A stretch of DNA of 64,000 bases. Origin: a virus. Position 1 is the stretch's first letter. Every line of letters starts with the position of its first letter. A program made the translations under genes and the position numbers. A model generated the notes under the pieces. The model made no database searches. It worked only from the letters and a program-made list of their open reading frames with translations, and was not told where the DNA came from. Of this stretch, positions 7,314-41,961 are shown in pieces. The DNA lies in the IMG/VR virus record IMGVR_UViG_3300032240_002045, positions 1-64,000 of that record. One strand, given 5' to 3'.

Positions 7314-8057
7314 CTAAATAAGATCCATTAACGCTGCCCAAGTTTTTGGCCCAACAATTCCGTTGGAGTCTAAGTTAGCGTGGTTGTTTTGAAATGCAAC
7401 AACTTTTGCTTTTGTAGCCGGTCCAAAATCCCCATCTTCTACGAGTGTGAGTGCGTGTTGAATAGCTTTTACTGCTTCTCCCTTGTCTCCAGGTTTAATT
7501 TGTCCGGGAAAAGCTGGCTTAAGGGCGGGAACTGGATCTACGTGCACATCATTACCTACGTAATTAGGGCGCCCAAAACCTTCAATAAATACTGGGATAC
7601 CCTTAGCATTCTTTTTATAGGCACGAATCTTTTTTACGGCTTCTCCACCGTTTGCTTGCGAACCAGACTTCTTCTTATCTCCAGAAGTATTACCCTCCAT
7701 AGTAGTAACAGTTCCATCGCCATTATCCTTAACTACGATTCCAACGTGCTCAATTGGAGCACCGCCAGCCATAAAGTCAAAGTATACAATATCTCCCGGC
7801 TCTGGCTTTGCTACCGCGGCGTCTGTCCAAGTTCCAAGTTTTTTAAATGCGGCAGCCCCAGCCATTGTTGAAACAGTGTTAGGGATTTTAACTCCGGCTT
7901 GGTTTGCCACCCACATGCAGAAACTTCCGCACCAAGGCAAAAAGTTGGCTTTTGTAAAAGCTCCGTATTTGGTTTCATTATCTTTTGGGCCTTCTACATA
8001 GCCTTCTTCTTTAAGTGCAAGTTCTACCATTAATGCGGCTGTACCTTTGTCTGCCAT
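7314..8057 (-). CDS. Endolysin: CHAP domain plus peptidoglycan-binding domain
   Basis: GYVEGPKDNETKYG, PWCGSF, PGDIVYF, HVGIV, EGNTS; C-terminal DGDFGPAT...FQ...GIVGPKTW. Confidence 0.92.
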   Translation of the reverse strand: MADKGTAALMVELALKEEGYVEGPKDNETKYGAFTKANFLPWCGSFCMWVANQAGVKIPNTVSTMAGAAAFKKLGTWTDAAVAKPEPGDIVYFDFMAGGAPIEHVGIVVKDNGDGTVTTMEGNTSGDKKKSGSQANGGEAVKKIRAYKKNAKGIPVFIEGFGRPNYVGNDVHVDPVPALKPAFPGQIKPGDKGEAVKAIQHALTLVEDGDFGPATKAKVVAFQNNHANLDSNGIVGPKTWAALMDLI

Positions 8058-14382: not shown

Positions 14383-14575
14383 TCTTCTTATGCCAATCTT
14401 TAGTTGCTTTTACGCCTTGCTTAATAGTTTTAGCGCCAGCTTTCTTTGTAAGATTAATTTTATCGTACTTGCCTTTATTTCCAGCGTGATCAACAATAAC
14501 TTCGCCTTTTTTGTTCTTTTTAATAGTGTGGCCTTCACCGGCAACTTTAATTGTTTTTGCCATTTTTACCTCCAA
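14375..14575 (-). CDS. Small basic hypothetical protein
   Basis: GGAGG SD before MAKTIK (start probably 14563). Confidence 0.6.
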   Translation of the reverse strand: MEVKMAKTIKVAGEGHTIKKNKKGEVIVDHAGNKGKYDKINLTKKAGAKTIKQGVKATKDWHKKNG

Positions 14576-14704
14576 TTAAAAACTTATTTCTAATTTTTTT
14601 AAAAAATAACTCTACTTTTTGTTCTGTTTTGTATTCAATACTGTTTTTATAATAATCTGATGCAAAATGTGGGCTTTCGGTAGTCCTAGCAATATGACGT
14701 GGTG

Positions 14705-14896
14705 TCAACTGTTCTCACCCATCCAACCAGGACCGGCAATTAATTTAGCCTTTGTATTGGCCGCTGGCTTGTTGTGTGGGACTGGAACAACCTTTGGCTT
14801 AGGGTTTCCTGTCATCTCTGCATGAAACTCGCGTAGGCCGCGTGTGCGGGTTAGATCGATAACGCGGTGCTTGTCATGAGCTTTATCATCTGCCAT
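14705..14896 (-). CDS. Small hypothetical protein (leaderless)
   Basis: CAAACT-N6-ATG. Confidence 0.55.
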   Translation of the reverse strand: MADDKAHDKHRVIDLTRTRGLREFHAEMTGNPKPKVVPVPHNKPAANTKAKLIAGPGWMGENS

Positions 14897-14910
14897 AGGT
14901 AAAGTTTGCC

Positions 14911-15138
14911 CTATTTGCTTTTAAAAGTCAGGGCGTATTTTGCATATGCCAGAATAAGCATATCTGTGAGCTTATCTTTGCTCTCTGGGTGCTTTTCCTT
15001 AAAATGATCACGCCACTGAATTGCGGTGAATTTACTGCTGGCACAGCCATTATTAATGTCATCCCAGATAAGTTTGCTAAAGACGTTTGTACGCGAAGGC
15101 GTGTCTAAGTTATCAAAGAGCCACGTATTAAAAGTCAT
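14911..15138 (-). CDS. YozE/SAM-like small protein
   Basis: MTFNTWL...FSKLIWDD pattern; leaderless promoter. Confidence 0.5.
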   Translation of the reverse strand: MTFNTWLFDNLDTPSRTNVFSKLIWDDINNGCASSKFTAIQWRDHFKEKHPESKDKLTDMLILAYAKYALTFKSK

Positions 15139-15160
15139 GGGGGAAAGATAGCAAGTACAG

Positions 15161-15256
15161 TTATACTTTAAAGTCTAAAGATTCAAACTCATCTACAGCA
15201 TCATCCAAAGTTCGTTCAACATGCTCAGCTGTGCAATCGCCACAATTTCTACACAT
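15161..15256 (-). CDS. 31-aa Cys-rich micro-protein MCRNCGDCTAEH...
   Basis: Read by hand; TAAACT-N6-ATG leaderless start. Confidence 0.55.
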   Translation of the reverse strand: MCRNCGDCTAEHVERTLDDAVDEFESLDFKV

Positions 15257-15573
15257 GATTATAGTTTAGCTTCAAAACGGGAAAAAGCAGGGTAATTACA
15301 CCGCGGTTGCTACTAACCCCAAAGCCCTTTTCGCCTCCACAGCTTTATAGTAAACAAGCGCTTGCCACGTATTGCAAATTCTAAGAGTAGACGGCTGCGC
15401 TTGTGATCATCTGATAGCTGATACGCCCGAAAGACACCAGTGCGTTTTAAATATCTTTCAAGATAGCGCTCTAGCTCTGGTGACAATTCTTCGCTCATAC
15501 AACAACCTTAACACATTTGGCTACTGCCTTGTCAACAGGTGTACCTCTTCAAAAATTTTGATAGGGTGTCTTT

Positions 15574-16557
15574 ATGAAATGTGGCACTTACTCTGGTTAC
15601 AAAAAACATAGAAAAGATAAAAGCTTTATTTGTCAACCCTGCAGATTGGCTATGAATGCCTATCGTAGGGAGTACAACAAGCGTAAGCCTGAGAAGAATG
15701 CTCAATACCATGCTAAGTACAAAGCAAAGTTTGCTCCTGCTAAGGAGGCTGAAAGGGCTGCTAAGAAAGCTGCTCGTGATATTGCGTCTGCAGAAAAGGC
15801 TCAAAAGCTCGCGGTTGCTCGTGCAGAGCGTGCTGCACTCAAAGAAGCTCGCAGGATTGAGAGAGAAGCAGAGTTAGCTAAGATAAAGGCTAACAAAGCT
15901 AAAGTTAGTGCTGCTCAGATGCGTGATGTTCTTAGGTATATCAGGTACCAAAGGCTGCTCATTAATAGCCAACTTAAGAAGCATGCACGTCAAGAGGCTA
16001 TTAATGCTCAAAAAGAACAAGCTAGATTAGCCAAAGAGGTTGCGGTTGCAGAAGAGCAACTTAGACGTCAGCAACGTGAGCAACATAGGCAACTTATGCT
16101 CAACCAGCATGGAACTAGCATTGGTGATTACTCTCGTTGTAAGAAGGCTAACACCACAGCTTGCGCAGACTGCTTAAAAGCAGCCTCCGCCTACCGCAAA
16201 GCTCAAGTAGCAAGAGACCCTGAAAAATTTAAACAACAAAAGAAAAAGTATTTAAAAGCTAATCCTAATAGACGCCATCACAGCAATAGAGATCGTGCCC
16301 GCAAGAAGGGCGTGCCTAGCCAGTACTACACCCGCCAACAGATCTTTAATCGTGATGGCTACGACTGTTACCTATGTAACCTGCCTGTAGATCTCACCGC
16401 GAACCATGTTCAGGGCCAACCTGGTTGGGAGCTGTATCCGCACGTTGAGCACGTTATCCCACTAGCACTCGGTGGCCATGACACCTTAGATAATGTCAAG
16501 ATTGCTCACGCTATTTGTAACATCCGCAAAGGGGTCTCCGCGCCTGTTGCCGTTTAG
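15574..16557 (+). CDS. HNH endonuclease with two (C/H)GT-Y..CxxC modules and a coiled coil
   Basis: RDGYDCYLC...HVEHVIPLALGGHDTLDNVKIAHAICNIRKG. Confidence 0.85.
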   Translation: MKCGTYSGYKKHRKDKSFICQPCRLAMNAYRREYNKRKPEKNAQYHAKYKAKFAPAKEAERAAKKAARDIASAEKAQKLAVARAERAALKEARRIEREAELAKIKANKAKVSAAQMRDVLRYIRYQRLLINSQLKKHARQEAINAQKEQARLAKEVAVAEEQLRRQQREQHRQLMLNQHGTSIGDYSRCKKANTTACADCLKAASAYRKAQVARDPEKFKQQKKKYLKANPNRRHHSNRDRARKKGVPSQYYTRQQIFNRDGYDCYLCNLPVDLTANHVQGQPGWELYPHVEHVIPLALGGHDTLDNVKIAHAICNIRKGVSAPVAV

Positions 16558-16672
16558 GGCTACGGACTTGAGGTCACCCTTGTTACCTACGGCTGAACAC
16601 TGGTGGCTTCCAAATTGTCGACTTTTCCTAACCGTGGGGGGGTCTTCTGACCAGTCATAGTTTGCGAGTGCT

Positions 16673-16746
16673 CGGCGTGTCGCTTGCATTCGTGTGGCGT
16701 GTGCACTATCTTTCATTTATCGCCACAAGGCGAGCCGATAGGAAGG
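16673..16746 (+). promoter_or_regulatory. Cassette 1 promoter and leader
   Basis: CGGCGTGTCG box, TTGCAT-N17-TATCTT, 5' hairpin 16720-16733, CCGATAGGAAGG RBS. Confidence 0.75.
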
Positions 16747-16752
16747 CATAAC

Positions 16753-16923
16753 ATGACACCAGAAATAGGCGATTGGTACACGACACACAATAGCGGGGTG
16801 ATTGGTTGGGTCTGTGAAATAGTTCCCAACCGCACTGGCACATTCCGCTTGCGCTTGCGCACTGTGGACTTAGACATCAAATGGACGACTTTCATTCCAG
16901 AGGGTGTTAAGGTGAGCGCATGA
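16753..16923 (+). CDS. Small hypothetical early protein
   Basis: ATG after the GGAAGG RBS; ATGA overlap with the next gene. Confidence 0.7.
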   Translation: MTPEIGDWYTTHNSGVIGWVCEIVPNRTGTFRLRLRTVDLDIKWTTFIPEGVKVSA

Positions 16924-17789
16924 GCACAATTAAGGAAGACATCACCGCGCTACTCGTTAAGGCGCTCGAGGAAGGCAATGCGCCATGGCGTAAGGGTTGG
17001 GTTGGTGGCATGGCGCCAACATCTCTTGCAACGGGTAAACCGTATCAAGGCATCAACACTCTCATTCTCTCTCTACTAGGTGAGGGATACGCGCACCCGC
17101 TCTGGCTCACATATAAACAAGCCGAGGCCCTAGGCGGTAACGTCAAGAAGGGCGAGAAGTCGGTCCGCGTAGTTTACGCAGCGCAGAAGTCAATCGAGCC
17201 AACCGAGGAGAAGGAGGGCACAAGCTTCTTCTTCTATAAATGGTTTAACGTGTTCAACGTAGATCAATGCGAAGGTATCGAGATCCCCGCACAATTCTTG
17301 CCTACTGGTGAGACCGTCGAGCCACTCGATGCCATTAACACTCTATGGGATGGATACACCAACCGCCCGGAGATGTTCTACAGCGAACAGGGCCGGGCCT
17401 TCTATTCACCTTCGGCCGATTCGATCACGCTTCCAACCTTGCATCAATTCAAGAGCGCAGAAGAGCACGCGTACACCTTCGCTCATGAGATGATTCATTC
17501 AACTGGACACGAGTCCCGCACCAACCGTTGGAAGAATGCGGAAGACAAGCCAAGCCGATTTGGATGCGACACCTACGCCAAGGAAGAATTAATCGCAGAA
17601 GTAGGCGCATGCATGTTGCTAGCGAGCGCCGGGGTTGAATTCGATATCCCTAACTCTGCAGCCTACCTTCGCTCATGGATCAAGGCTTTAAACGATGACA
17701 AGAGCCTAATCTTTAAAGCATCAGCGAAAGCACAAGCAGCAGCCAACTACATCACCGGGGTCAAAGTACAAGAGGAGGTGAATGCATGA
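16920..17789 (+). CDS. ardC: ArdC-family ssDNA-binding antirestriction protein with zincin-like domain
   Basis: PWRKGW, Y.GIN...L, WLTYKQA..LGG.VKKGEK, VFNVDQ, HEMIHSTGH, YAKEELIAE. Confidence 0.9.
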   Translation: MSTIKEDITALLVKALEEGNAPWRKGWVGGMAPTSLATGKPYQGINTLILSLLGEGYAHPLWLTYKQAEALGGNVKKGEKSVRVVYAAQKSIEPTEEKEGTSFFFYKWFNVFNVDQCEGIEIPAQFLPTGETVEPLDAINTLWDGYTNRPEMFYSEQGRAFYSPSADSITLPTLHQFKSAEEHAYTFAHEMIHSTGHESRTNRWKNAEDKPSRFGCDTYAKEELIAEVGACMLLASAGVEFDIPNSAAYLRSWIKALNDDKSLIFKASAKAQAAANYITGVKVQEEVNA

Positions 17790-17890
17790 ACCGCCTACTT
17801 ACTTCACTAGTGCAGCTAGTACTGCTAGGAGTCACCGCGCCGTTGGTTGTATTAATGGTCAAAGACTTCCGCGAGAATAAACTCGAATAG
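17786..17890 (+). CDS. 34-aa single-TM peptide MNRLLTSLVQLVLLGVTAPLVVLMVKDFRENKLE
   Basis: Read by hand; GGAGG SD and ATGA overlap. Confidence 0.65.
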   Translation: MNRLLTSLVQLVLLGVTAPLVVLMVKDFRENKLE

Positions 17891-17912
17891 CTTTCCCCCT
17901 ATCGGAAAACAC

Positions 17913-17940
17913 AGAGCCCCGGCCCAACAGCTGGGGCTTT
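17913..17940 (+). terminator. Cassette 1 terminator
   Basis: AGAGCCCCGGC-CCAACA-GCTGGGGCTTT. Confidence 0.8.
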
Positions 17941-17956
17941 GCTGTTGGCCGGCGCA

Positions 17957-18011
17957 TTTGTTTGTGTTGGCCCACCCGCCCCGTTTATAAGGGAGTATGT
18001 ATGTAGAGAGA
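17957..18011. repeat. Conserved inter-cassette element, copy 1
   Basis: TTTGTTTGTGTTGGCCCACCCGCCCC...AAGGGAGTATGTATGTAGAGAGA. Confidence 0.85.
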
Positions 18012-18020
18012 TACACAGCC

Positions 18021-18041
18021 TGTGGATAAACCTGTGGATAA
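18021..18041. promoter_or_regulatory. Two tandem perfect DnaA boxes
   Basis: TGTGGATAA (reverse complement TTATCCACA) at 18021 and 18033. Confidence 0.7.
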
Positions 18042-18065
18042 AGTTATCTAATTGTTATACAACTA

Positions 18066-18144
18066 CGGCGTGTCGCTATTGGTTTTGTCGGTGAGTTAGT
18101 TTAGATTTATCTCATCAAGCAAACGGCTTGATTACCGATAGGAG
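18066..18144 (+). promoter_or_regulatory. Cassette 2 promoter: GTGTC box plus RecA-NDp/PafBC-type motif
   Basis: CGGCGTGTCG, TGTCGG-N10-TAGATT (18086-18107), 5' hairpin ATCAAGC/GCTTGAT, CCGATAGGAG. Confidence 0.75.
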
Positions 18145-18152
18145 AACAGAAA

Positions 18153-18638
18153 GTGACTACAACAACTAAGCCAACAGTACGCGAGGCTAAATTGGTAATT
18201 GACCACCAATTCACCCGTTTCATGGACGGTCAATACATTGACCCCCTAGCACTAGACATCATTGGCTATTCCGTAGCAAATGAAATGCAAATCCGCGATT
18301 ACCTTTTGGGGTACTCAATGGAAACAGGCGATAACACCCTCGCCGTCAAGTATGTAGCTCACCTAATTGAGCAAGGTATCTCCGAACAGTATCGTCACGC
18401 TTTCTATACTGTGCTTTCCGCGCTTTACTTTATGGACGGCGATAGCGACCTTGCTTTCTTAGCACTAGATGAGGCGAAAGCCCTCAAATCTGATTACGCC
18501 CTTGCTGGCTTGCTAACACGCGTCTATGGAACAGGGTGGAACAGTCAAGAGTTTCGCTCTATGACTGTGGAACTGCACCCAAAAGTGCTAAGCACGATAG
18601 AGGACATAGCAGACAACACGATTGAGCAAATCGCTTAA
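18153..18638 (+). CDS. DUF4192-like protein
   Basis: IRDYLLG...A..ALDEA......Y.LA.LL pattern. Confidence 0.55.
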   Translation: MTTTTKPTVREAKLVIDHQFTRFMDGQYIDPLALDIIGYSVANEMQIRDYLLGYSMETGDNTLAVKYVAHLIEQGISEQYRHAFYTVLSALYFMDGDSDLAFLALDEAKALKSDYALAGLLTRVYGTGWNSQEFRSMTVELHPKVLSTIEDIADNTIEQIA

Positions 18639-18648
18639 ATCCGCAATT

Positions 18649-18676
18649 CTCCCTGAGCATGGAGTTAAACTGCTCA
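18649..18676 (+). ncRNA. Compact H-type pseudoknot in an intergenic leader
   Basis: CTCC/GGAG and TGAGCA/TGCTCA crossing stems with TTAAAC loop. Confidence 0.55.
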
Positions 18677-18707
18677 CCCAACAACTACCGATAGGAAAGG
18701 TAATACC

Positions 18708-19124
18708 ATGTCAAGAGCATTAACAGTAAAAGTGCCGGTTACAAAAGTAATTGCGGCATTAGAGGCATCACTAGCAAAACTAGAAAAGGACTACTCAACT
18801 CAAGAGGGAAAGGAGGCTAAGTACCAAAAGGCACGCGAGGCATGGATTAAAGAACTAACCAACTATGCCATAGCAAACATCAAGAGCGCGGTTAATTTCC
18901 GTACTAACTATCGCGAATGGAATAACACCCTTAACATTGACTATGACATCACAGTTAATGAAAAGGACTTACCAAAAGAGCCGGAAAAAGATTTCGTTAC
19001 TATTCATCAACACTCTTACAATGATAGTAAAGAGGAAATCGAAAGTGCCCTCCGCATCTTAAAGATGACCGACGAGGAGTTCGTTGCCGCATCTACTATG
19101 AAAGCAATCTCCAAATACCTATGA
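18708..19124 (+). CDS. Hypothetical early protein
   Basis: CCGATAGGAAAGG RBS; coiled-coil N-terminus. Confidence 0.8.
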   Translation: MSRALTVKVPVTKVIAALEASLAKLEKDYSTQEGKEAKYQKAREAWIKELTNYAIANIKSAVNFRTNYREWNNTLNIDYDITVNEKDLPKEPEKDFVTIHQHSYNDSKEEIESALRILKMTDEEFVAASTMKAISKYL

Positions 19125-19207
19125 CTATGATGCCTGTCTGTGGGGAGTGCCGTAAGGCACTCTCCCCAGACGAATACGGATACGGACACGATTGTGAGGG
19201 GGAATGA
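19121..19207 (+). CDS. 28-aa CxxC...HxC micro zinc-finger
   Basis: MTMMPVCGECRKALSPDEYGYGHDCEGE; ATGA overlaps at both ends. Confidence 0.6.
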   Translation: MTMMPVCGECRKALSPDEYGYGHDCEGE

Positions 19208-19404
19208 TGAAAAAGCCTACATGTGCTAATTGCGGGGTGTTCCTTAAAGATGAGGAGATCCTCAACGCTATCTATTGGAATACGATCCTGTTTGGTAGCG
19301 AGCGCGTAGCTGAAGCTAATTGCGAAAAGTGCGAGGACTTTAACTACGCTAAAGAAAACTCAATCATTAAAGAACCACACCACAAGTACGATTGGCGGGT
19401 ATAG
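19204..19404 (+). CDS. Small CxxC...CxxC protein
   Basis: CANC...CEKC; coupled start. Confidence 0.65.
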   Translation: MMKKPTCANCGVFLKDEEILNAIYWNTILFGSERVAEANCEKCEDFNYAKENSIIKEPHHKYDWRV

Positions 19405-19430
19405 TTGGAGGCATGATGTAAACAATACTT

Positions 19431-19620
19431 AGGCGCTAGATCGGGCGCCTGTCTTATAAATGAGTCGATCTAGCTCGGCGGTCGGTGAACAGGAACCGCA
19501 CATGGGAAAGCTGCCACCCTCTGGCAGGTTATTAAGGCTCGCAATGATAAACGAGTAAGAGTGCCGTAGTCGGTACCGCCTTTGGGATCGCCCCGTAGCT
19601 AATCAGCTGCGGGGCTTTCT
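19431..19620 (+). ncRNA. Candidate structured non-coding RNA ending in a terminator
   Basis: ORF-free; multiple nested helices (see findings); GCCCCGTAGCT/AGCTGCGGGGC terminator. Confidence 0.5.
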
Positions 19621-19640
19621 CATGCTCGCGATTCGCGGAA

Positions 19641-19699
19641 TGTTTGTGTTGGCCCGCCCTCCCCATTCTATTTCATAGGGAATACATACAGGAGAGAGA
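19641..19699. repeat. Conserved inter-cassette element, copy 2
   Basis: TGTTTGTGTTGGCCCGCCCTCCCC...ATAGGGAATACATACAGGAGAGAGA. Confidence 0.85.
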
Positions 19700-19724
19700 T
19701 TTATAACGATTTGATAACGCTTTG

Positions 19725-19809
19725 CGACACGCCGTTGAAATGGTAGGAGATGTCGGTGGCATGCATTACCTTGTGCTTGTGGGTAACAATGCCTACAACA
19801 CGATAGGAG
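19725..19809 (+). promoter_or_regulatory. Cassette 3 promoter: inverted GACAC box plus RecA-NDp/PafBC-type motif
   Basis: CGACACGCCG, TGTCGG-N10-TACCTT (19751-19772), CGATAGGAG RBS. Confidence 0.75.
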
Positions 19810-19815
19810 ATTCAA

Positions 19816-20379
19816 GTGGGTTATTACGTAGATTTGGTGGATGCTGATTTTATCATCCCTGAGACAGAAGAGGTACTGCAGGCACTCCGCGAGATGCCTA
19901 AGAAGTACAAGTCAATACAGCGCGGTGGCTCATCTAATGGAGATAAGTGGTTCTCATGGATGAATGATGAAGAGATAGAGAGTGCTGAGAGTGCCCAATC
20001 TATATTTGAGGCTCTCGGATTTGAGTGCGAGAAGGACAAGTACGGGACTCCAAATACTTTCTCCCTGGAGTCATACAACAGCAAGACTGGACAAGAAGAC
20101 CTCTTCCTAGCCGTCGTTGCTCAATTCATGCCAGATGATGCATATACAGAGTGGCGCGGTGAAGACGGCGAGATTTGGCGCTACACAGTCAAGGGTAAGA
20201 AACTGATGGTTCAATCCTCTCGTATTGAGTGGAATTATCCTGAGACTTTCCGCGTGGCAAAATTCCATTCAACTGGCTCTTTCAAGGATAATACCTACCA
20301 ATCGCACACAATCTATGTAGACCCATATGAAGATGTGGATGCACAGATTCAAGCAAAATTGGAGAAGGTAAATGCCTAA
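19816..20379 (+). CDS. Hypothetical early protein
   Basis: GTG after RBS; SK.GQE..FL..VA......Y.EWRGEDG..WR motif. Confidence 0.8.
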   Translation: MGYYVDLVDADFIIPETEEVLQALREMPKKYKSIQRGGSSNGDKWFSWMNDEEIESAESAQSIFEALGFECEKDKYGTPNTFSLESYNSKTGQEDLFLAVVAQFMPDDAYTEWRGEDGEIWRYTVKGKKLMVQSSRIEWNYPETFRVAKFHSTGSFKDNTYQSHTIYVDPYEDVDAQIQAKLEKVNA

Positions 20380-21034
20380 CTGGGTCACTAATGAATTAAC
20401 AATCGAATGTGCTGATAGAGATTACCTACTAGCGGTTGGGGCGCGGTTACGCGCTCCAATCCCTGGAAGGGACGGTGACATTCATATAGTTACAGATACC
20501 AAGTTCTCATTTTGGAATATCACTGCTCCTACTGATTTAGATGCTTATCACAGCGTTTGCGATTCAGAGGGGATGAAGAACCCTGATAACTGGTACAACT
20601 GGAACATACGTAACTGGGGAGTTAAGTGGGATGCACGAGTTCATTCTGCTGATGTCAATCATGACTCCCTGACTTATGATTTTGATACAGCCTGGGCTCC
20701 ACCAATCAAAGCCTTAGAGTCTTTATGCGAAGAGTTACCTGACCTTAAGATTACCCTCCGCTACGTTGAAGAACAGGGCTGGGGTGGAGTTATGGTCTTT
20801 AAAGAAGGTGAGACTTATGAGATTGAGGAGTGGGATATCCCTGAGTCTCATGAAGAGGCTGTAAAGGCTTTTGGCGAGTGCTATCACTGCGACGACATTG
20901 GTAATCTCTATGGTGACTGCCCAGAAGCCATAGCATCACAGTCTCACGATCGTGACATTGAGTTAATGGGAGAATGCCGGTGGTGCGAGATTAACGAAGA
21001 TGGTCGCTACGACGATTGTCCGCCAAATGAGTAA
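20372..21034 (+). CDS. YubB/DUF1281 ferredoxin-like protein with two C-terminal Cys/His repeats
   Basis: MPNWVTNEL, WYNWNIRNWGVKWDA, FDTAWAPP. Confidence 0.8.
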   Translation: MPNWVTNELTIECADRDYLLAVGARLRAPIPGRDGDIHIVTDTKFSFWNITAPTDLDAYHSVCDSEGMKNPDNWYNWNIRNWGVKWDARVHSADVNHDSLTYDFDTAWAPPIKALESLCEELPDLKITLRYVEEQGWGGVMVFKEGETYEIEEWDIPESHEEAVKAFGECYHCDDIGNLYGDCPEAIASQSHDRDIELMGECRWCEINEDGRYDDCPPNE

Positions 21035-21110
21035 GGCAAGATGCCCGTGGTGCGGGGATGACTACGAAGTAACAGCGTGGGATCCACCGCACGAATGTAA
21101 GAAAGACTAA
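21027..21110 (+). CDS. 27-aa CxxC...HxC micro zinc-finger
   Basis: MSKARCPWCGDDYEVTAWDPPHECKKD, overlapping the upstream stop. Confidence 0.55.
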   Translation: MSKARCPWCGDDYEVTAWDPPHECKKD

Positions 21111-21134
21111 GTTTCCTCCTATCGGAAACGCCAG

Positions 21135-21163
21135 GCCCTAGCTGAGAAATCGGCTGGGGCTTT
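21135..21163 (+). terminator. Cassette 3 terminator
   Basis: GCCCTAGCTGA-GAAA-TCGGCTGGGGC-TTT. Confidence 0.8.
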
Positions 21164-21181
21164 GTGCGTTGCGCTTGCGGA

Positions 21182-21236
21182 TTTGTTTGTGTTGAAGCCC
21201 ACCCTCCCTCATTAGGGAAATAGGAGGAGGAGAGAG
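21182..21236. repeat. Conserved inter-cassette element, copy 3
   Basis: TTTGTTTGTGTTGAAGCCCACCCTCCC..ATTAGGGAAATAGGAGGAGGAGAGAG. Confidence 0.8.
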
Positions 21237-21305
21237 TGACCAGTCATGACTGCTTATGACCAGTTATAGGCGTGACTGGTCAGAGTTTATTAGTTGGGCG
21301 TCTTG

Positions 21306-21380
21306 CGGCGTGTCGATTGGATTAAGCGAGGAAGCCGAGTAAGTTGATCCTGTGGACATAAGTTCACCAAGAGATAGGAG
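21306..21380 (+). promoter_or_regulatory. Cassette 4 promoter and leader
   Basis: CGGCGTGTCG, TTGGAT-N17-TAAGTT, 5' hairpin GTGGAC/GTTCAC, GATAGGAG. Confidence 0.7.
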
Positions 21381-21386
21381 AAAATA

Positions 21387-21677
21387 GTGAGTGAGATGGG
21401 CAAGTTTTACAATGAGAGAGGCAAGGCCTTTTATAACCGTTATTACAAGCAATTAGAAGGCGCCAAGATAGTTCGCTATTACGGCATGTCTGAAGGAGAG
21501 TTCCCTACCTTTGAAGTGGAGTTATCTAACTGTCAGATTATTAAGATAGAGATCTCCCGCGATCCTGAGGGCAATGGCGGTGGCTTTGTGTTTGGTCTAA
21601 ATCATCCTGATATGGCTGACTGGGATAAGAAGCAAGCCCTATTAGCCCAATTACTGGAGGAGGAAGCTCATGCCTGA
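21387..21677 (+). CDS. Hypothetical early protein
   Basis: SRDPEGNGGGF motif; RBS. Confidence 0.75.
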   Translation: MSEMGKFYNERGKAFYNRYYKQLEGAKIVRYYGMSEGEFPTFEVELSNCQIIKIEISRDPEGNGGGFVFGLNHPDMADWDKKQALLAQLLEEEAHA

Positions 21678-21993
21678 GACGCTACCCTGCAGCGAGCGCA
21701 TTCGCGGTGAGCTAGCTCAGCGCAATGCCATGCTGCGCCAGGTTATGGACAATCCCAACCATGATGATTACTTTGATGACCCAGCTTTATCTATAGATCA
21801 CATGGATGTAACCCGCGTTTGTTTCTCTTACGGCGGTCCAAGCGACTACCTGGAGATCACCCACAATGGGCGGGACATTATTAAAGCCGAGTACCTGTTC
21901 CATGACTGGTATGACGGTGCCCGCGTGTCGGTCGACGAGGGCACGCCTATGTATGAGTATGCTAAAACCCTATTAGAGAACCAGGAGATGTAA
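21670..21993 (+). CDS. Hypothetical early protein
   Basis: SYGGPSD...Y.FHDWYDGA motif; GGAGG SD. Confidence 0.75.
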   Translation: MPETLPCSERIRGELAQRNAMLRQVMDNPNHDDYFDDPALSIDHMDVTRVCFSYGGPSDYLEITHNGRDIIKAEYLFHDWYDGARVSVDEGTPMYEYAKTLLENQEM

Positions 21994-22227
21994 ATGGAGC
22001 TTATGACGAGAGGTACCCTGCGGGGCACACAGCTGCAAAACGGAGCGCTGTGCATCGAGAGTTGGCAGATCAACCAGGATGAGCACGTAGTTCTAGCTCT
22101 GCGGGAGCATTCTTATGATCCCTATGTAGTGTGGACAGCTACAGAGGATGGAATCTGTTCCCGCGGCGATTACTGCCGCACGATCCAGGAGGCTGTAGCT
22201 GCAGCTGAGCGGAGGGCGGGGGTCTAA
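21994..22227 (+). CDS. Hypothetical early protein
   Basis: Coupled ORF; DPYVVW...GDY. Confidence 0.7.
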   Translation: MELMTRGTLRGTQLQNGALCIESWQINQDEHVVLALREHSYDPYVVWTATEDGICSRGDYCRTIQEAVAAAERRAGV

Positions 22228-22430
22228 TGGAAGGAACAATGACAAAAGAAGCTGTAGACACCCTGGTAGAGAGCTTCCTAGCTATTAAAGAGTGGGACGT
22301 TGTAGTCAATGCCCTGGCTTTGGAGGTATTAATAGCCATTCCGCGCTCGCCAGGTGATAGCTACACAGACGAAGAATGCGTTGAAATGATAGCTGAGGTG
22401 ACTGATCACTGGAGGAAGCTCAAGAGTTGA
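22227..22430 (+). CDS. Hypothetical early protein
   Basis: Coupled ORF; YTDEEC motif. Confidence 0.65.
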   Translation: MEGTMTKEAVDTLVESFLAIKEWDVVVNALALEVLIAIPRSPGDSYTDEECVEMIAEVTDHWRKLKS

Positions 22431-22446
22431 GTCGACACGGCTCAAG

Positions 22447-22488
22447 TTTGCTGAGCTGGCTGGGCGCGAGCCTGGCCGGCTCGGCAAA
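22447..22488. terminator. Long hairpin ending cassette 4
   Basis: TTTGCTGAGCTGGCTGGGC-GCGA-GCCTGGCCGGCTCGGCAAA (19 bp with G-U pairs, GNRA loop). Confidence 0.7.
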
Positions 22489-22538
22489 TGTTTGTGTTGG
22501 CCCACCCACCCCATAAGGGAATATATATAAAGAGAGAG
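22489..22538. repeat. Conserved inter-cassette element, copy 4
   Basis: TGTTTGTGTTGGCCCACCCACCCC-ATAAGGGAATATATATAAAGAGAGAG. Confidence 0.85.
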
Positions 22539-22902
22539 GTGATGCAGCTCACGGCGTGTTGCTATTGACTTATCCGGCCCATTCTGCCATGGGGCTCAAT
22601 TGTCGACAAAGCGATTTGCCGATCTAGGCTACTGCTAATTGTCGACAAAGCAACACTGCGGATACGGCCAGATTTACAGCCCATTCCCAGAATGACTTAG
22701 CTGATAACTACTAAGAGAGAGAGAGAGCAAGAGAGAGAGAAAGCCTTACAGGCTCAAATAGCCCTCTAGCCCTCAATATAACGATTAGATAACAATATGA
22801 CTATGAGCGTGGGAGAGCCTTGACTCTCTATGTATCCCTATGGTTATCATTCTCTTAACGGTGAAGGTATCACCGCGATATAAATTACAGTGAGGTATTA
22901 AC

Positions 22903-23040
22903 ATGGCAAAGAAAGCGTTCACACGCATTATTGATATAGAGACTGGCGAGGAGCTAGTTTCAGCTGATTTAACCGAAGCTGCTGCAAAGCGCTTCATTAA
23001 GTACTATCAGGTATTCGGCATATATGGAAAGGTGGCTTAA
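22903..23040 (+). CDS. 45-aa hypothetical protein MAKKAFTRIIDIETGEE...
   Basis: Read by hand; GAGG SD, upstream TTGACT promoter and 5' hairpin. Confidence 0.65.
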   Translation: MAKKAFTRIIDIETGEELVSADLTEAAAKRFIKYYQVFGIYGKVA

Positions 23041-23042
23041 TC

Positions 23043-23624
23043 ATGGCTATTGAGCAAGTCCTATATAAGGACTACCTAATCTCTATTGAACCTGATATGG
23101 AGCCTATGAACCCCCGCGAGTGGGATAACTTCGGCACTATGGTGTGTTTCCACAATAAGTACCGCCTAGGCGATACACACACTATTGATTCTCCCGACTT
23201 TAGCTCATGGAGCGAGGTGCGTGACTACATTGAGGCTGATCTAGGTGGCATGGTTATCCTGCCTCTATTCTTATATGACCATAGTGGTATCTCTATGTCA
23301 GTAGGTGCTCCCCGCGCCCAACACGCTTCATGGGATAGTGGTCAAGTTGGGTTTATTTATTGTACTGATGGCGACATGGTGCGCGAAAACCTCAAGGATC
23401 TTGAGCAAGCCGAAGCCTTACTTCGTGGTGAGGTTGCTGCATATAACCGTTACTTAACTGGAGACGTATATACCTACCGCATTGAGAAAGCTTCAACCTG
23501 TGATAGTTGTAATCATACCTCCGCGGAATTTGTAGACTCATGCAGTGGTTGGGATAGCGTCGATGATGCTATGAAAGAGGCTATGCAAGTAGTTGACTAC
23601 CAAGCTGCGCAGGTGAGCGCATGA
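23043..23624 (+). CDS. Conserved hypothetical phage/plasmid protein
   Basis: NPREWDNFGTMVCFH..Y.LGD, YDHSG, WDSGQVG, YL.GDVY, DSCSG. Confidence 0.8.
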   Translation: MAIEQVLYKDYLISIEPDMEPMNPREWDNFGTMVCFHNKYRLGDTHTIDSPDFSSWSEVRDYIEADLGGMVILPLFLYDHSGISMSVGAPRAQHASWDSGQVGFIYCTDGDMVRENLKDLEQAEALLRGEVAAYNRYLTGDVYTYRIEKASTCDSCNHTSAEFVDSCSGWDSVDDAMKEAMQVVDYQAAQVSA

Positions 23625-23764
23625 GTCAAGATCAAGAGTCAATTAGCTGGGGAGAGTTGGCGGAGCTAACTCATGCAACCCAAGTTGAACGGTTTAATTG
23701 GTGCTCATGCGAAGAGCAAGAGGACTTTCCCTATTCAGACTGCCCAAGAAAGGAGTTAGTATGA
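23621..23764 (+). CDS. 47-aa protein with H...CSC...YSDCP motif
   Basis: Read by hand; ATGA overlaps at both ends. Confidence 0.65.
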   Translation: MSQDQESISWGELAELTHATQVERFNWCSCEEQEDFPYSDCPRKELV

Positions 23765-24015
23765 CAAGAAAGTACTCTGTAAGAAAAGAAGTTGAACCCC
23801 GAAAATATTGTTCTGTGCAGTTTGATATGCAGATACGACTAGATTCTCCTGAAATAACTGATGAGCAATTAGAAAAGCTTATAGTTAACTTGAGAAAGTA
23901 TTCTAGAAAAGCCACGTATGACTCCGGGGTTCGAGCCCGTATGGTGCTTGTAACGGCGCAAGTTGGAGAAGCAAAAGTTGTCCCAGAGCAACATCCAGGA
24001 AAGGGGTTAGTATGA
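23761..24015 (+). CDS. Hypothetical protein
   Basis: AGGAG SD before MTRKYS. Confidence 0.6.
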   Translation: MTRKYSVRKEVEPRKYCSVQFDMQIRLDSPEITDEQLEKLIVNLRKYSRKATYDSGVRARMVLVTAQVGEAKVVPEQHPGKGLV

Positions 24016-24120
24016 GCTATAAGATAACCGCAGAAGTTGATGATCAATGGTTTGAGATTCTAGGCCAAATTACACGTCACCAAGAGGGTTTCGTGTGGAT
24101 GGGGGTAGAGGAGAATAAAG

Positions 24121-24351
24121 ATGGATTATGAGACAGTTAACCTAATAGTTGGGAGTATTAAAGTGTGTAAAAAAATACGCGCTACCGCCGTCATAGAGTA
24201 CGATATTGAAGAGGTACTAAGAGATTTACGTACGGACTTCCCTGATGAGGAGTTTACAGAAGAGAGTGTTGTGGATATGATTCATAACTGGATTAAAGAC
24301 GACTTCGGGAATACCCTCGCGGACGTCAGAATTGAGGAGATCAATGGCTAA
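24121..24351 (+). CDS. Hypothetical acidic protein
   Basis: GAGGAG SD. Confidence 0.6.
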   Translation: MDYETVNLIVGSIKVCKKIRATAVIEYDIEEVLRDLRTDFPDEEFTEESVVDMIHNWIKDDFGNTLADVRIEEING

Positions 24352-24634
24352 GAGAGTAACTGCTAACTTTAATGGTGAGCTTCGTAAAAACAATGTCAGA
24401 GGTGGTGGTTGGATTGCAGAATATTCAGTTACTCGAGCTGATCTAGATAAGCCTGTAGCTGCAAATTATTCAGCGTGGGCTAACCCATCAGCTGGTAAGA
24501 AGTGGTTGAAAGAGATGGTGCTAGCCCATACTCCTAAGAAGAGTATCAAGATGGTTGCCGGTACGGATAAAGATGATAAAGGTAAGCCTATTTACTTTAA
24601 TGGCGACGTTCCCTTTAAGGTTGATTTGGTTTAA
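24344..24634 (+). CDS. Hypothetical protein
   Basis: GAGGAG SD before MAKRVTA. Confidence 0.7.
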   Translation: MAKRVTANFNGELRKNNVRGGGWIAEYSVTRADLDKPVAANYSAWANPSAGKKWLKEMVLAHTPKKSIKMVAGTDKDDKGKPIYFNGDVPFKVDLV

Positions 24635-24816
24635 TGGAAGAGATCATTCCTGAGCCTAATTGGCTCCCAAGCGCTGACCCAACCGCAATTCCATATGAGG
24701 ATGATGAGGAAGATGAAGACGATCACGATCACGAAGACGACGGTGACGACGACGGTGACTACGACAAGCATGCACTTGACGAAATTACCTTTGGATTCAC
24801 CCAACCTACTAACTGA
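24634..24816 (+). CDS. Very acidic small protein
   Basis: Asp/Glu tract; TAATG coupling. Confidence 0.5.
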   Translation: MEEIIPEPNWLPSADPTAIPYEDDEEDEDDHDHEDDGDDDGDYDKHALDEITFGFTQPTN

Positions 24817-24947
24817 GCTGTACTCATACCTTGAAGATCAAGAGAGTTTAACTAAAACATAAGAGCGTTAAAGCATATCTAAACCTTTCTGATGCTAAGG
24901 ACGGTCATGACTCTCTCACTAGACGAGCCGCACCTGCGCTACTTATG

Positions 24948-24980
24948 AAAAAACCCCCGGTTATTAGCCGGGGGTTTTTA
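24948..24980. terminator. Bidirectional terminator (same core as 213-233)
   Basis: AAAAAACCCCCGG-TTATTAG-CCGGGGGTTTTT. Confidence 0.9.
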
Positions 24981-24987
24981 CTATTTG

Positions 24988-27012
24988 TTATGCCTTAGGC
25001 ACTTCACAAAAATCTGTTGAACAATACTTTTCACCGATTGCATCTGCAGCCATTCCTGCGTATACATCAGTAAAATCAATTGGCAAGAGAGTAAGAGTGT
25101 AAGCTTCGTAATCTTCTTTAGTCATCTGTGTGTATGGCATCTGTGGATAAGTCATATTACCCATAGGTAAGAATGAGACAGTCTTTAATTGTCCGTCGAA
25201 CATATGAAGTACAGTTCCAACCGCGTCTTTTTCCTTCTCCGCATCAAAAGAGATCGTTACTGATACAGAGTTGTCGGACCAATGGCGTTGAGCCATAGCT
25301 GCAATTGAAGTCTTCTCGTAAATAGATACATCTTTTTCTGATCGAAGAGCAAGAGATTTAATTGGGAAAAACGTTACAGAAGTTCCGGTTGGATCTTCAC
25401 TTGCTGGTTCAATACGATATCCGGAAGCTTTGAACAATGGGAGCATGGGATCTTCGTTAGCAAAACGAATGGCACGAAGGAAGTACTCACCGCCCGGTGT
25501 CCAGTGAACGCCAGGTGATTCACCAGCCAAGATTGACACTGTGCCTGATGGCTTTACAGTTGTTGTCTTGATTGATTCACGGATACCAAGCCACTCTGAG
25601 TATGACTTATCGTATGACTGGATCTTTTCGTATCCCGCATCCATCCATTCACGTAGTGTTGGTAGCCCTACACGATCTGCAAAGTTAGCTATACCTGAGA
25701 TTGAAGTTCCAATACGACGATTGCGTTGCATGATCGCGTTGGTTTCTTCCCAATGTGTAGGCAATAGAGTTACAGTCTTTGCGTATAGGTAGGCAAACTT
25801 AAGTGTGCGCTTGAAGTCTTCCAAGTTGTCATGGCGATTTAAGTAAGTTTCTACCAATGTGCAACACTCAAATGATTCAAGTGATTGTTCTGCGCATGGG
25901 TTGTAACCCGCAGCTCGCCAGTCCTTGTTGTTAGGTGGATCAATGAGACGACCATACTTACGTGTCACGTCCATCCAAATAACACCCGGCTCACCATTCA
26001 AAGCTATGCCTTCAACAATGTGGTTCATGTCGTCTCCAACATTAACTTCCACGCTGTTGTTAGACATCCACGCCCAACCCGGTGCTGCTGGATCATATGA
26101 GTTGCGCTCTGGGTATACCGCTGGGTTCTTTAGGTTTAGGAAGTCCTTGTCATCAAGGCGACCCATGAGTAGCTCTGCTGATCTGCGAACGTTACCGCTT
26201 ACAACACAAACTCCGATCAAGTTACCGATATCAGCAATATCACGACGAGTTAGCTTCTCTCCCGCACGTCCCTTGAATAGGTTACGTACATAGTTGTGAA
26301 GCTTCTCTAGTGGTTCGTGTCCCGCGGCTGTTCCTCCAAAGGTTTTGATCGGAGTTCCGGCTGGTCTGATTTGTGAGTAGTCAAATACTGGGCTCTTCTG
26401 ATCTGGCTTAAGGTAGCTATTGATGACTGTGGTAACTGAGTCGACCCAACCTTCGCGGGTATCTGGGATAACGATTGGTTCTGTATCTGGTTCTGGTGCA
26501 TAGATTGTAAAGTCCTTATCTGCCCCTTTATCATCGAAGCCGACACCCACGCCAAGCATGGAGGCTTCCATTAAGAAGGCGAATGGTTTAGCTGGGTTGA
26601 TCTTGGTCATCGAGTCGGTTGATACGAATGAACAATTTTGTAGCGCTGCTGAGTTCTTCTGCTCATTAACAAGAGGAGTACCCATAACCCATAGTCCGCG
26701 ACCCGGCGGGGTCCACTTCAAATTAAAGAGTCGATCAAACGCTTCTTTAGCTGAGGACTGAGCCTTTGAGTCATTCCAAGGTAGTCGCTGGCTTTTAGCG
26801 TGATCCTTTTGGATTGAGTACATGCCGTTAACTACTCGCTCGCATACATCTACCCAAGTCTCTTTGGTGCCATCCTCTTTCAAACGGGAGTATGTTCGGA
26901 GAAAAGTAATCTCTCCAACTGAGTTTCCGCCAGCATCTTTATAGCCCCAAGGTACAGTTTTACCCTTGTAGCTGTTTACATGATCCTCGGCTAAACGAAA
27001 TGACAGTGCCAT
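24988..27012 (-). CDS. nrdJ: Class II (adenosylcobalamin) ribonucleotide reductase
   Basis: RTYSR, PPGRGLW, LQNC, GNVRRSAE, NPCAEQ.L, TTVKPSGTVS, C-terminal CSTDFC. Confidence 0.95.
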   Translation of the reverse strand: MALSFRLAEDHVNSYKGKTVPWGYKDAGGNSVGEITFLRTYSRLKEDGTKETWVDVCERVVNGMYSIQKDHAKSQRLPWNDSKAQSSAKEAFDRLFNLKWTPPGRGLWVMGTPLVNEQKNSAALQNCSFVSTDSMTKINPAKPFAFLMEASMLGVGVGFDDKGADKDFTIYAPEPDTEPIVIPDTREGWVDSVTTVINSYLKPDQKSPVFDYSQIRPAGTPIKTFGGTAAGHEPLEKLHNYVRNLFKGRAGEKLTRRDIADIGNLIGVCVVSGNVRRSAELLMGRLDDKDFLNLKNPAVYPERNSYDPAAPGWAWMSNNSVEVNVGDDMNHIVEGIALNGEPGVIWMDVTRKYGRLIDPPNNKDWRAAGYNPCAEQSLESFECCTLVETYLNRHDNLEDFKRTLKFAYLYAKTVTLLPTHWEETNAIMQRNRRIGTSISGIANFADRVGLPTLREWMDAGYEKIQSYDKSYSEWLGIRESIKTTTVKPSGTVSILAGESPGVHWTPGGEYFLRAIRFANEDPMLPLFKASGYRIEPASEDPTGTSVTFFPIKSLALRSEKDVSIYEKTSIAAMAQRHWSDNSVSVTISFDAEKEKDAVGTVLHMFDGQLKTVSFLPMGNMTYPQMPYTQMTKEDYEAYTLTLLPIDFTDVYAGMAADAIGEKYCSTDFCEVPKA

Positions 27013-41477: not shown

Positions 41478-41961
41478 CTCCTTTTATCTCAATCTCTTCC
41501 AAGGCTACTCCGCCTTGCTCTAAAACGCCAAGTCTTACTCCGATAGATATAGCTCCAAGTAAAGTTGTGGCAGCTACAGATTTATAAATTTCCCGCATAA
41601 TTTTTAAATCATCTTCTAATTCTTTTTGAAGCTCTGGGCTTTTACTTTCAGTACTTTCTTTTAATATTTTTAATTGGGCTGCGGTAATCACATCCGAACT
41701 AATAGTTGAAATATAATCTATATACGGTAAAACTTCTTTAATCTCAATTAACCTATTGTCGCTATCTTCTTGTTCTTTTGTATTTCCCTCGTCACTTACA
41801 CGAGTTAACCCTAAATACTCTGCAAGAGCGTTCTCATCTCCCACTCCTACGTCGTATATAAACCAACGAAGTAAAGTACTAGAAGGAAACTCATCTGAAA
41901 CAAAGTCAAAATCAAGGTTGTCATCGTCATCTTTTTTAAAGAAATTTGAAAACCAACTCAC
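41461..41961 (-). CDS. Acidic hypothetical protein
   Basis: Coupled to the polA stop. Confidence 0.7.
   Translation of the reverse strand: MSWFSNFFKKDDDDNLDFDFVSDEFPSSTLLRWFIYDVGVGDENALAEYLGLTRVSDEGNTKEQEDSDNRLIEIKEVLPYIDYISTISSDVITAAQLKILKESTESKSPELQKELEDDLKIMREIYKSVAATTLLGAISIGVRLGVLEQGGVALEEIEIKGDDDEF

Follow-up and report, generated by a model that had tools for sequence, protein, structure and literature searches.

Predicted pairing of 3′ hairpin loops with Shine–Dalgarno leaders in the early operons of an uncultured freshwater phage and its relatives

Background

Why would the early operons of a phage carry, just after their last stop codons, an inverted copy of the motif that stands at their ribosome-binding sites (RBSs)? 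The question is raised by the IMG/VR virus record IMGVR_UViG_3300032240_002045, a 97,993-bp record with direct terminal repeats, of which the first 64 kb (64,000 nt) were analysed; this whole stretch is called the window below, and positions without a contig name refer to it. A block of short + strand operons, here called cassettes, occupies ~15.5–24.9 kb, and nearly all remaining genes of the window lie on the − strand. The initial annotation of this block had proposed that trailers at the 3′ ends of two cassettes pair with leaders that overlap the Shine–Dalgarno (SD) sequences. We conclude from comparison with related phages and from predicted folds that 3′ hairpin loops of the early mRNAs probably pair, RNA with RNA, with the SD leaders, thereby occluding the SD and repressing translation in a manner like that of the icaR and hok mRNAs. 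Our confidence in the pairing as such is higher than in pairing together with repression.

Results

Leaders and inverted trailers in the early block

Direct reading confirmed all five leaders that had been annotated initially, starting at 16735, 18135, 18688, 19801 and 21373 and each overlapping an SD, and added a sixth, the GATAGG leader of the HNH gene at 15560, which had been overlooked (Table 1). In every leader, the SD begins with the GG of GATAGG, with 8–12 nt to the start codon. The motif is carried only by first genes or by genes that follow a spacer, while translationally coupled internal genes are without it, and no late gene has GATAGG at its SD, where TAAGGAG or TTAGGAG is found instead. 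The word CCGATAGG occurs five times in the window compared to 0.88 expected (0 of 100 shuffles reached five), with all copies within 16735–21125, three of them on the + strand 10–12 nt 5′ of start codons and two inverted in the trailers. Just two further copies are present in the rest of the genome, both within late coding DNA, and all six window copies of GATAGGA fall inside the early block.

The trailers described for cassettes 1 and 3 were also borne out, as the inverted motif was found directly after the last stop codons, beginning 0–2 nt beyond them, and before the terminators. These two 17-mers share 16 of 17 positions and have no other copies in the 97,993-bp genome. Cassette 1 has 8–13 nt of complementarity between leader and trailer, and cassette 3 has 9 nt. 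Two other roles for the trailers were considered and rejected, that of RBSs for minus-strand open-reading frames (ORFs), for which the nearby sequence offers no suitably spaced start codon, and that of tRNA anticodon loops, since U33 and a purine at 37 were absent on inspection.

A family of freshwater phages with conserved 3′ loops

Relatives were identified by a search with the ArdC-like protein of cassette 1 and by a scan for a ~55-bp element that is conserved at the cassette junctions. The family uncovered by the scan comprises ~60 IMG/VR contigs from freshwater metagenomes, many of them 88–98 kb in length, with the element in ~150 contexts. Other searches added no family members. An exact scan of IMG/VR with the trailer 17-mer returned 25 matches, close to the chance estimate for a 16-base word, and none was homologous to the window; megablast and blastn of 16500–21500 against GenBank phages gave no match; and a metagenome scan with the ArdC-like protein gave 80 loci at no more than 43% identity, none with the family's ~55-bp element. 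Literature searches found no description of leaders or trailers in this ~96-kb phage family.

Within 140 nt 5′ of the ~55-bp element, that is, at the 3′ end of the preceding cassette, CCTATC is present in 24 of 150 unique contexts and GATAGG in 4, and CCTATC is the commonest non-homopolymer 6-mer among the 3′ hairpin loops of the family. The loop is constant and the stems around it are different, including TTTCC/GGAAA, TTTATC/GATAAA, TCTTC/GAAGA, TTTACCT/AGGTAAA, CCCAGAG/CTCTGGG, GCGGGG/CCCCGC, CCAGCG/CGCTGG and GTGAGCTG/CAGCTCAC; in four relatives' stem types, the CCTATC loop is the loop of the terminator itself. The two-tier hairpin that ends the early block was aligned with its counterparts in three relatives (L074:850–905(−), L123:4674–4729 and L237:3139–3194; alignment A1), showing compensatory changes in 7 of 15 pairs, with a loop that reads CCUAUC in the three relatives and CUCACU in the window phage. 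Among single-change loop variants, four were C>T and four were other changes, compared to an expected C>T share of 3/18, which is suggestive of G·U tolerance.

Contig L216 (IMGVR_UViG_3300032247_000689) carries a hairpin homologous to trailer 3, GTTTCT/AACCTTTC/GGAAAC, ~75 nt 5′ of the element at 7635, and 9 nt of its loop form the complement of a CGAAAGGTT leader that precedes an ORF elsewhere in the contig, in a different cassette.

Leaders and trailers occur together and change together

GATAGG leaders are confined to a subgroup of the family, the remaining members having GAAAGGGGC-type SDs, and loop-presented CCTATC trailers fall in the same subgroup (Fisher p = 6e-4 at the contig level, uncorrected for phylogeny). 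Where a cassette encoding an ArdC homologue has a GATAGG leader and its 3′ end could be fetched, a CCTATC trailer was found just 5′ of the terminator in six out of six cases, even though the genes between leader and trailer vary among these six; a seventh such cassette (contig L104) ends before its 3′ end and is outside this count. The sole ArdC homologue with a TTAGGGG leader has no CCTATC trailer.

Covariation of the two motifs, which had been put forward initially as a check on the pairing, was seen at the base flanking the core. In the window phage, four of six leaders read C-GATAGG and both trailers read CCTATC-G, while in the relatives T-GATAGG is found in 22 of 28 leaders (C in none) and CCTATC-A in 12 of 13 trailers (G in none). 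The flanking pair is thus C:G in the window phage and U:A in its relatives.

The terminator that precedes the ArdC cassette has different stems in L104/L127 (CGCCCGCTCCC) and L112 (CGCGGTCTCTC) around the same loop, ACTTCCCC. The leader of that cassette, GATAGGGGAAGCAA, contains GGGGAAG, to which this loop is complementary; the loop makes up a second anti-leader word in the GATAGG subgroup.

Complementarity independent of the motif

The 24 nt (−24 to −1) before the predicted first start codon of each of 78 family cassettes were compared with all 3′ hairpin loops, recording the longest perfect antiparallel complement regardless of the sequence involved. A complement of at least 7 nt was found within the same cassette in 12 of 78 cases (15.4%), compared to 8.1% when leader and loop came from different cassettes of one contig and 3.2% when they came from different contigs, and none of 5000 permutations reached the observed count of own pairs. 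Controls at the same threshold gave two own pairs for the parallel complement, three for the reversed sequence and none for the same sense; at 8 nt or more, seven true pairs remained and all three controls gave zero. The 12 matches represent eight words (GAGGGCTAA, GGGCTGATT, GGGGCTAA, CGAAGGGC, GGGGAAG, GGGCTGT, TGATAGG and CGATAGGAG), all of them located within −15 to −1, over the SD and the spacer, and several of the loops are clean terminator loops.

These results bear on two explanations that dispense with RNA pairing. One is that the features are independent, GATAGG being a lineage-specific extended SD or translation enhancer and the loops a protein-binding site or 3′ stabiliser, with a complementarity that is incidental to G-rich SDs and C-rich terminators. 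TAGGAG is a common SD in late genes as well, most cassettes have no match of at least 7 nt, and GAUAGGAG agrees at seven of eight positions with CUCCUUUC, the actinobacterial 16S tail. An incidental origin does not account for near-zero counts in the reversed, parallel and same-sense controls, for the five-fold lower frequency in cross-genome pairs or for a flanking base that changes in concert in leaders and trailers, and given the eight-word signal and its controls we regard it as unlikely.

The other is that (C/T)GATAGG is a site in double-stranded DNA for a phage or host DNA-binding protein, placed in opposite orientations at gene starts and ends. An inverted DNA site would show flank covariation too, and the early spacers contain other operator-like repeats, for example GGCGTGTCG in both orientations. 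The initial annotation had set an orientation-independent DNA site against its own reading; in the 150 contexts mentioned above, orientation depends strictly on position (24 versus 4). The position of the leader copy is fixed relative to the start codon, at SD distance, and not relative to the promoter, and the trailer copy lies in hairpin loops with co-varying stems. Eight unrelated sequences of different phages show the antiparallel relation, and each of them would call for a DNA-binding specificity of its own. A shared protein site is therefore very unlikely, and RNA–RNA pairing is the reading that we carry forward.

Predicted folds of full-length and nascent transcripts

Full-length folding placed the leader–trailer helix in the minimum free energy (MFE) structure of all six cassettes folded, namely cassettes 1 and 3 of the window and the ArdC cassettes of L028, L059, L096 and L112. 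In cassette 1, folded from its predicted 5′ end, 16735–16747 pairs with 17890–17905 (P = 0.7–1.0) through a helix of 13 pairs with a 3-nt bulge (CCGAUA + GGAAGGC against GCUUUCC-ccc-UAUCGG). Cassette 3 closes by a 9-bp CGAUAGGAG/CUCCUAUCG helix that engages the trailer 3 segment CTCCTATCG (21116–21124), and the four relatives' cassettes close alike with 11–22 pairs. The predicted mean unpaired probability of the SD was 0.45–0.67 in nascent RNAs of 100–400 nt and 0.08–0.12 at full length; with a shuffled trailer, the full-length value was 0.26–0.62, and in cassettes 2 and 4, which have no trailer, it was 0.43–0.55.

Pairing in trans was modelled between fragments made of trailer plus terminator and the GATAGG leaders of the window, giving ΔΔG values mostly of −8 to −14 kcal/mol. 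Weaker values were obtained for the HNH leader (−3.4 and −5.4 kcal/mol) and in one case for the internal leader (−5.7 kcal/mol), and three control leaders gave 0 to −8 kcal/mol with the same fragments. A search of 14500–25500 on both strands with the covariance models of Rfam 15 gave no match at E ≤ 1.

The pairing could be real and yet serve to protect, the 5′–3′ helix shielding the leader from an endonuclease or 5′-exonuclease, or returning terminating ribosomes to the start and so prolonging or boosting expression. The same sequence evidence speaks for this as for SD occlusion, there is a precedent in hbs (PMC5737220), and the trailers start 0–3 nt after the last stop, where ribosomes about to terminate would open the helix again next to the SD. 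The helix, however, covers the SD itself (−15 to −1), an arrangement that lowers initiation in icaR (PMC3868564) and in a screen of 8-mers (PMC12697547), and the leaders already have a 5′-terminal hairpin of their own, so that a mainly protective role seems doubtful to us.

A loop that stands 200–290 nt 5′ of the next leader could instead act as a read-through insulator, silencing the next cassette on RNA that has leaked through and limiting its translation to transcripts from its own promoter. The distance from trailer to next leader is 199–285 nt in seven cases, and for the trailers at 5704 in L028 and 5781 in L059 the downstream leader is the best or only nearby partner. Since pairing is stronger with the cassette's own, upstream leader than with the leader downstream in six of eight cases, the end-of-block loops have nothing downstream, and the motif-agnostic signal came from the upstream own leader, we consider insulation quite unlikely and retain occlusion of the SD by the cassette 3′ end as the preferred reading.

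Genomic context of the cassettes

At the cassette junctions, a terminator-like hairpin is followed by the conserved ~55-bp element and then by a promoter-like sequence, GGCGTGTCGn-TTGnnn-17-TAnnTT. The promoter-like hexamers place the predicted transcription start sites (TSSs) only 15–30 nt 5′ of the leader motif, and the same arrangement of GGCGTGTCG, −35 and −10 is seen repeatedly in the phage family. GGCGTGTCG itself occurs at 16674, 18067, 19725 (−) and 21307 in the window and in 74 instances in the family; it abuts a TTGnnn −35-like hexamer, often as GGCGTGTCGGCTTGAC, and stands in both orientations relative to the cassettes, resembling an activator or operator site. In the L028 copy of the ~55-bp element, the variable part is a strong hairpin, CCCTTATCCC-TTC-GGGATAGGG.

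The ArdC-like protein of cassette 1 (16920–17789) has ArdcN and zincin peptidase domains, and its gene is translationally coupled through an ATGA overlap to the 34-aa hydrophobic ORF (17786–17890) that ends the cassette; in L096, a small membrane-like ORF likewise lies 3′ of the ArdC homologue. Cassette 3 ends with a Cys-rich short ORF (21027–21110; CPWCG...HEC), in which the CxWC motif found at the C-terminus of the 220-aa Api92-like protein encoded just before it occurs again (direct repeat D13, 20974–21000 and 21041–21067). Two tandem AG-rich 16-mers, AAGAGAGAGAGAGAGC and AAGAGAGAGAGAAAGC, are present at 22713–22745 in the long spacer 3′ of cassette 4, and the spacers of relatives hold similar GAGAGAG runs.

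The DNA polymerase I of the window (41958–43934, −) has its best matches, at 38% identity, in ~113–116-kb Streptomyces phages (Alone3, BRock), which supports an actinophage-like lineage for the window phage, uncultured and of freshwater origin. Together with a weak match to DUF4192 in one of the early proteins, this makes an actinobacterial host likely.

Table 1 Positions of leaders, trailers and associated features in the early block of the window
Feature	Position	Strand	Start codon or neighbouring stop	Remarks
HNH gene leader, GATAGG	15560–15565	+	ATG 15574	
Cassette 1 promoter (sigma-A type, predicted), TTGCAT-17 nt-TATCTT	16684–16712	+		from sequence; preceded by GGCGTGTCG; TSS ~16719 (predicted)
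Cassette 1 5′-terminal leader hairpin, UCGCC-ACAA-GGCGA	16720–16733	+		MFE fold
Cassette 1 leader, CCGATAGGAAGGC	16735–16747	+	ATG 16753	motif plus SD; CCGATAGGA at 16735–16743
Cassette 1 coding part	16753–17890	+		56-aa ORF, ArdC-like protein, 34-aa hydrophobic ORF
Trailer 1, TTTCCCCCTATCGGAAA	17892–17908	+	after TAG 17888–17890	hairpin TTTCC/CCCTATC/GGAAA; 17890–17905 complementary to leader
Cassette 1 terminator-like hairpin	~17911–17945	+		
Cassette 2 leader, CCGATAGGAG	18135–18144	+	GTG 18153	CCGATAGGA at 18135–18143; own cassette without trailer; 10-nt complement of trailer 3
Cassette 2 internal leader (second gene), CCGATAGGAAAGG	18688–18700	+	ATG 18708	CCGATAGGA at 18688–18696
Cassette 3 leader, CGATAGGAG	19801–19809	+	GTG 19816	predicted −10 TACCTT 19767–19772; TSS ~19779
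Trailer 3, TTTCCTCCTATCGGAAA	21112–21128	+	after TAA 21108–21110	hairpin GTTTCC/TCCTATC/GGAAAC at 21111–21129
Cassette 3 terminator hairpin	~21130–21165	+		
Cassette 4 leader, GATAGGAG	21373–21380	+	GTG 21387	own cassette without trailer
~55-bp element, GTTTGTGTTGGCCCACCCnCCCC...GGGAnTA...AGAGAGA	17954–18011, 19636–19700, 21179–21235, 22484–22540			3′ of early terminators, 5′ of promoter-like hexamers; core GTTTGTGTTGGCCCACCCnCCCC...AGAGAGA at 17960, 19642, 21185, 22490
End-of-block two-tier hairpin (conserved)	24894–24942	+		before convergent terminator; alignment A1

Discussion

The early + strand operons of the window phage and its ~96-kb freshwater relatives would, in the mechanism that we propose, be leader/anti-leader units. 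The short 5′ untranslated region (UTR) of the first gene would present a 5′ hairpin followed by an extended SD element, (C)CGAUAGGAG in the window phage, and the anti-leader loop would lie between the last stop and the terminator or would be the terminator loop, reading CCUAUCGG flanked by CCUCC or CUUUCC in the window. With the 3′ end transcribed, the loop would nucleate a 7–13-bp helix with the SD region, in cis by closing the same ~1.1–1.4-kb message. Other early mRNAs with the same leader would probably be bound in trans as well, via full mRNAs or via stable 3′ hairpin–terminator fragments. The helix would hide the SD, and initiation on finished early messages would fall. The trailer–leader pairing of the initial annotation is thus upheld in its sequence complementarity, to which co-occurrence, co-varying stems and flank, the eight-word signal and the folds have been added, while its repressive outcome is inferred here by analogy with icaR and the anti-SD-like 8-mers. 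The co-transcriptional burst of translation, or built-in timer, that it also envisaged is speculation.

Action both in cis and in trans is likely. The excess of own pairs favours cis, as do the lineage-specific extensions of the match in ArdC cassettes, CATCTGATAGG in L059 and TGATAGGGGA in L096 and L127. In favour of trans, several leaders per genome carry the motif and only some cassettes have the loop, and trailer 3 has a longer match with the cassette 2 leader (10 nt) than with the leader of its own cassette (9 nt).

A number of observations weigh against this mechanism. Only two of the five early cassettes in the window bear a trailer, and in the family a match of 7 nt is attained in just 15% of cassettes, one of 6 nt in 27%. 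The difference between own cassettes and other cassettes of the same genome is a trend (Mann–Whitney U test, p = 0.07), and the eight GATAGG pairs are only weakly better than swapped pairs (p = 0.04–0.14; 0.04 by energy and 0.10 by helix length), so that strict cis specificity beyond the shared core is not claimed. CCUAUC loops are also found in cassettes that have no GAUAGG leader of their own (L059 at 5781 and the end-of-block hairpins of L074 and L123), and cis closure alone is therefore insufficient. The related contigs are phylogenetically dependent. As to the folds, the 5′ ends used rest on promoter-like hexamers and the 3′ ends on terminator hairpins, and when cassette 1 is folded from a 5′ end at 16560 the helix is gone (P = 0.003) and the leader pairs locally; folding moreover leaves out ribosomes and kinetics, and the helices are short (7–13 bp) across ~1 kb of translated RNA. 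Finally, the effect may have either sign, as stabilisation of the hbs type would fit the sequence data just as well.

The closest known system is the icaR mRNA of Staphylococcus aureus, in which initiation is blocked when a pyrimidine-rich anti-SD motif of the 3′ UTR base-pairs with that mRNA's own SD region, and for which both cis and trans (dimer) pairing were weighed (PMC3868564). A predicted 3′ UTR that complements the SD region of its own gene or operon is found in the phages too, in cassettes 1 and 3 of the window and in 12 of the 78 family cassettes. The icaR system is one chromosomal gene, its 3′ UTR is long (>100 nt) and an RNase III step is involved; in the phages, the predicted 3′ UTRs are ~25–60 nt, the motif sits in a hairpin or terminator loop, and several operons per genome are involved across the family, with different sequences. 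The phage system would be icaR-like in its working. Three features appear to be new, namely that it is modular, that several operons and many phages share it, and that the anti-leader is presented by the loop of a hairpin or terminator.

On 5′–3′ pairing, the full-length hok mRNA closes and can no longer be translated, while its nascent form is structured differently, and in silico the full-length phage cassettes likewise close into a structure that differs from the nascent fold. Membership of the hok family was nevertheless rejected. Fold-back inhibition of hok (fbi/tac) belongs to the type I toxin–antitoxin system of plasmid R1 (PMC9841398, PMC4147584), whereas in the phage cassettes neither a toxin, a Sok-like antisense RNA nor a known 3′ processing step was seen and Rfam gave no match, the genes are ordinary early genes (ArdC-like, Api92-like and of unknown function), and the 34-aa hydrophobic ORF is the last gene and not the regulated first one.

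Long-range UTR pairing is shared with the hbs mRNA of B. subtilis, a short and highly expressed message in which a 14-bp 5′/3′-UTR helix protects against RNase Y and leaves the SD uncovered (PMC5737220), unlike the phage helix, which covers the SD. The same physical principle underlies the finding that distant anti-SD-like 8-mers pair with RBSs hundreds of nucleotides away, lowering translation and RNA level, and are depleted from genes (PMC12697547). Words that are selected against there are kept in the phages at a fixed place in a 3′ hairpin loop, and this conservation implies selection for them. For action in trans, a parallel is offered by the actinobacterial 6C small RNA (sRNA), a C-rich-loop sRNA of Hfq-less Gram-positives whose loop seed targets G-rich SD regions without a chaperone (PMC6486639). 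As in 6C and in 3′-UTR-derived sRNAs, the predicted phage seed lies in a hairpin loop adjoining or inside a terminator and would be able to pair with several mRNAs; it differs from 6C in matching the phage's own leaders and not host mRNAs. Among phages, the 3′ end of the T7 gene 1.2 mRNA reportedly pairs with the RBS, a single case from RNase III-site mutants, compared to a design that in the present family is conserved over several operons.

A bolder extension of the mechanism, which we hold to be improbable, is that the early mRNAs lock themselves, with the 5′–3′ helix kept open by ribosomes and closing for good after initiation lapses, and with shut-off in trans providing the early-to-middle switch. 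The position of the loop right at the last stop may let terminating ribosomes hold the helix open during traffic, and 3′ hairpin–terminator ends, as they accumulate with one common seed, may shut other early leaders in trans. Such a switch may be protein-free and dose-dependent, with seed and leader co-evolving genome by genome.

Conclusions

To our knowledge, 5′–3′ UTR pairing that conceals the SD has been described for just a few individual bacterial genes (icaR, hok and hbs). The comparative signal makes the leader/anti-leader idea directly testable with simple reporters. If confirmed, it would be the first case of a family-wide, modular mRNA closure that controls phage early genes, including the anti-restriction ArdC-like operon, and it would provide natural matched leader/anti-leader pairs for studies of long-range RNA pairing in Hfq-less (actinobacterial) hosts.

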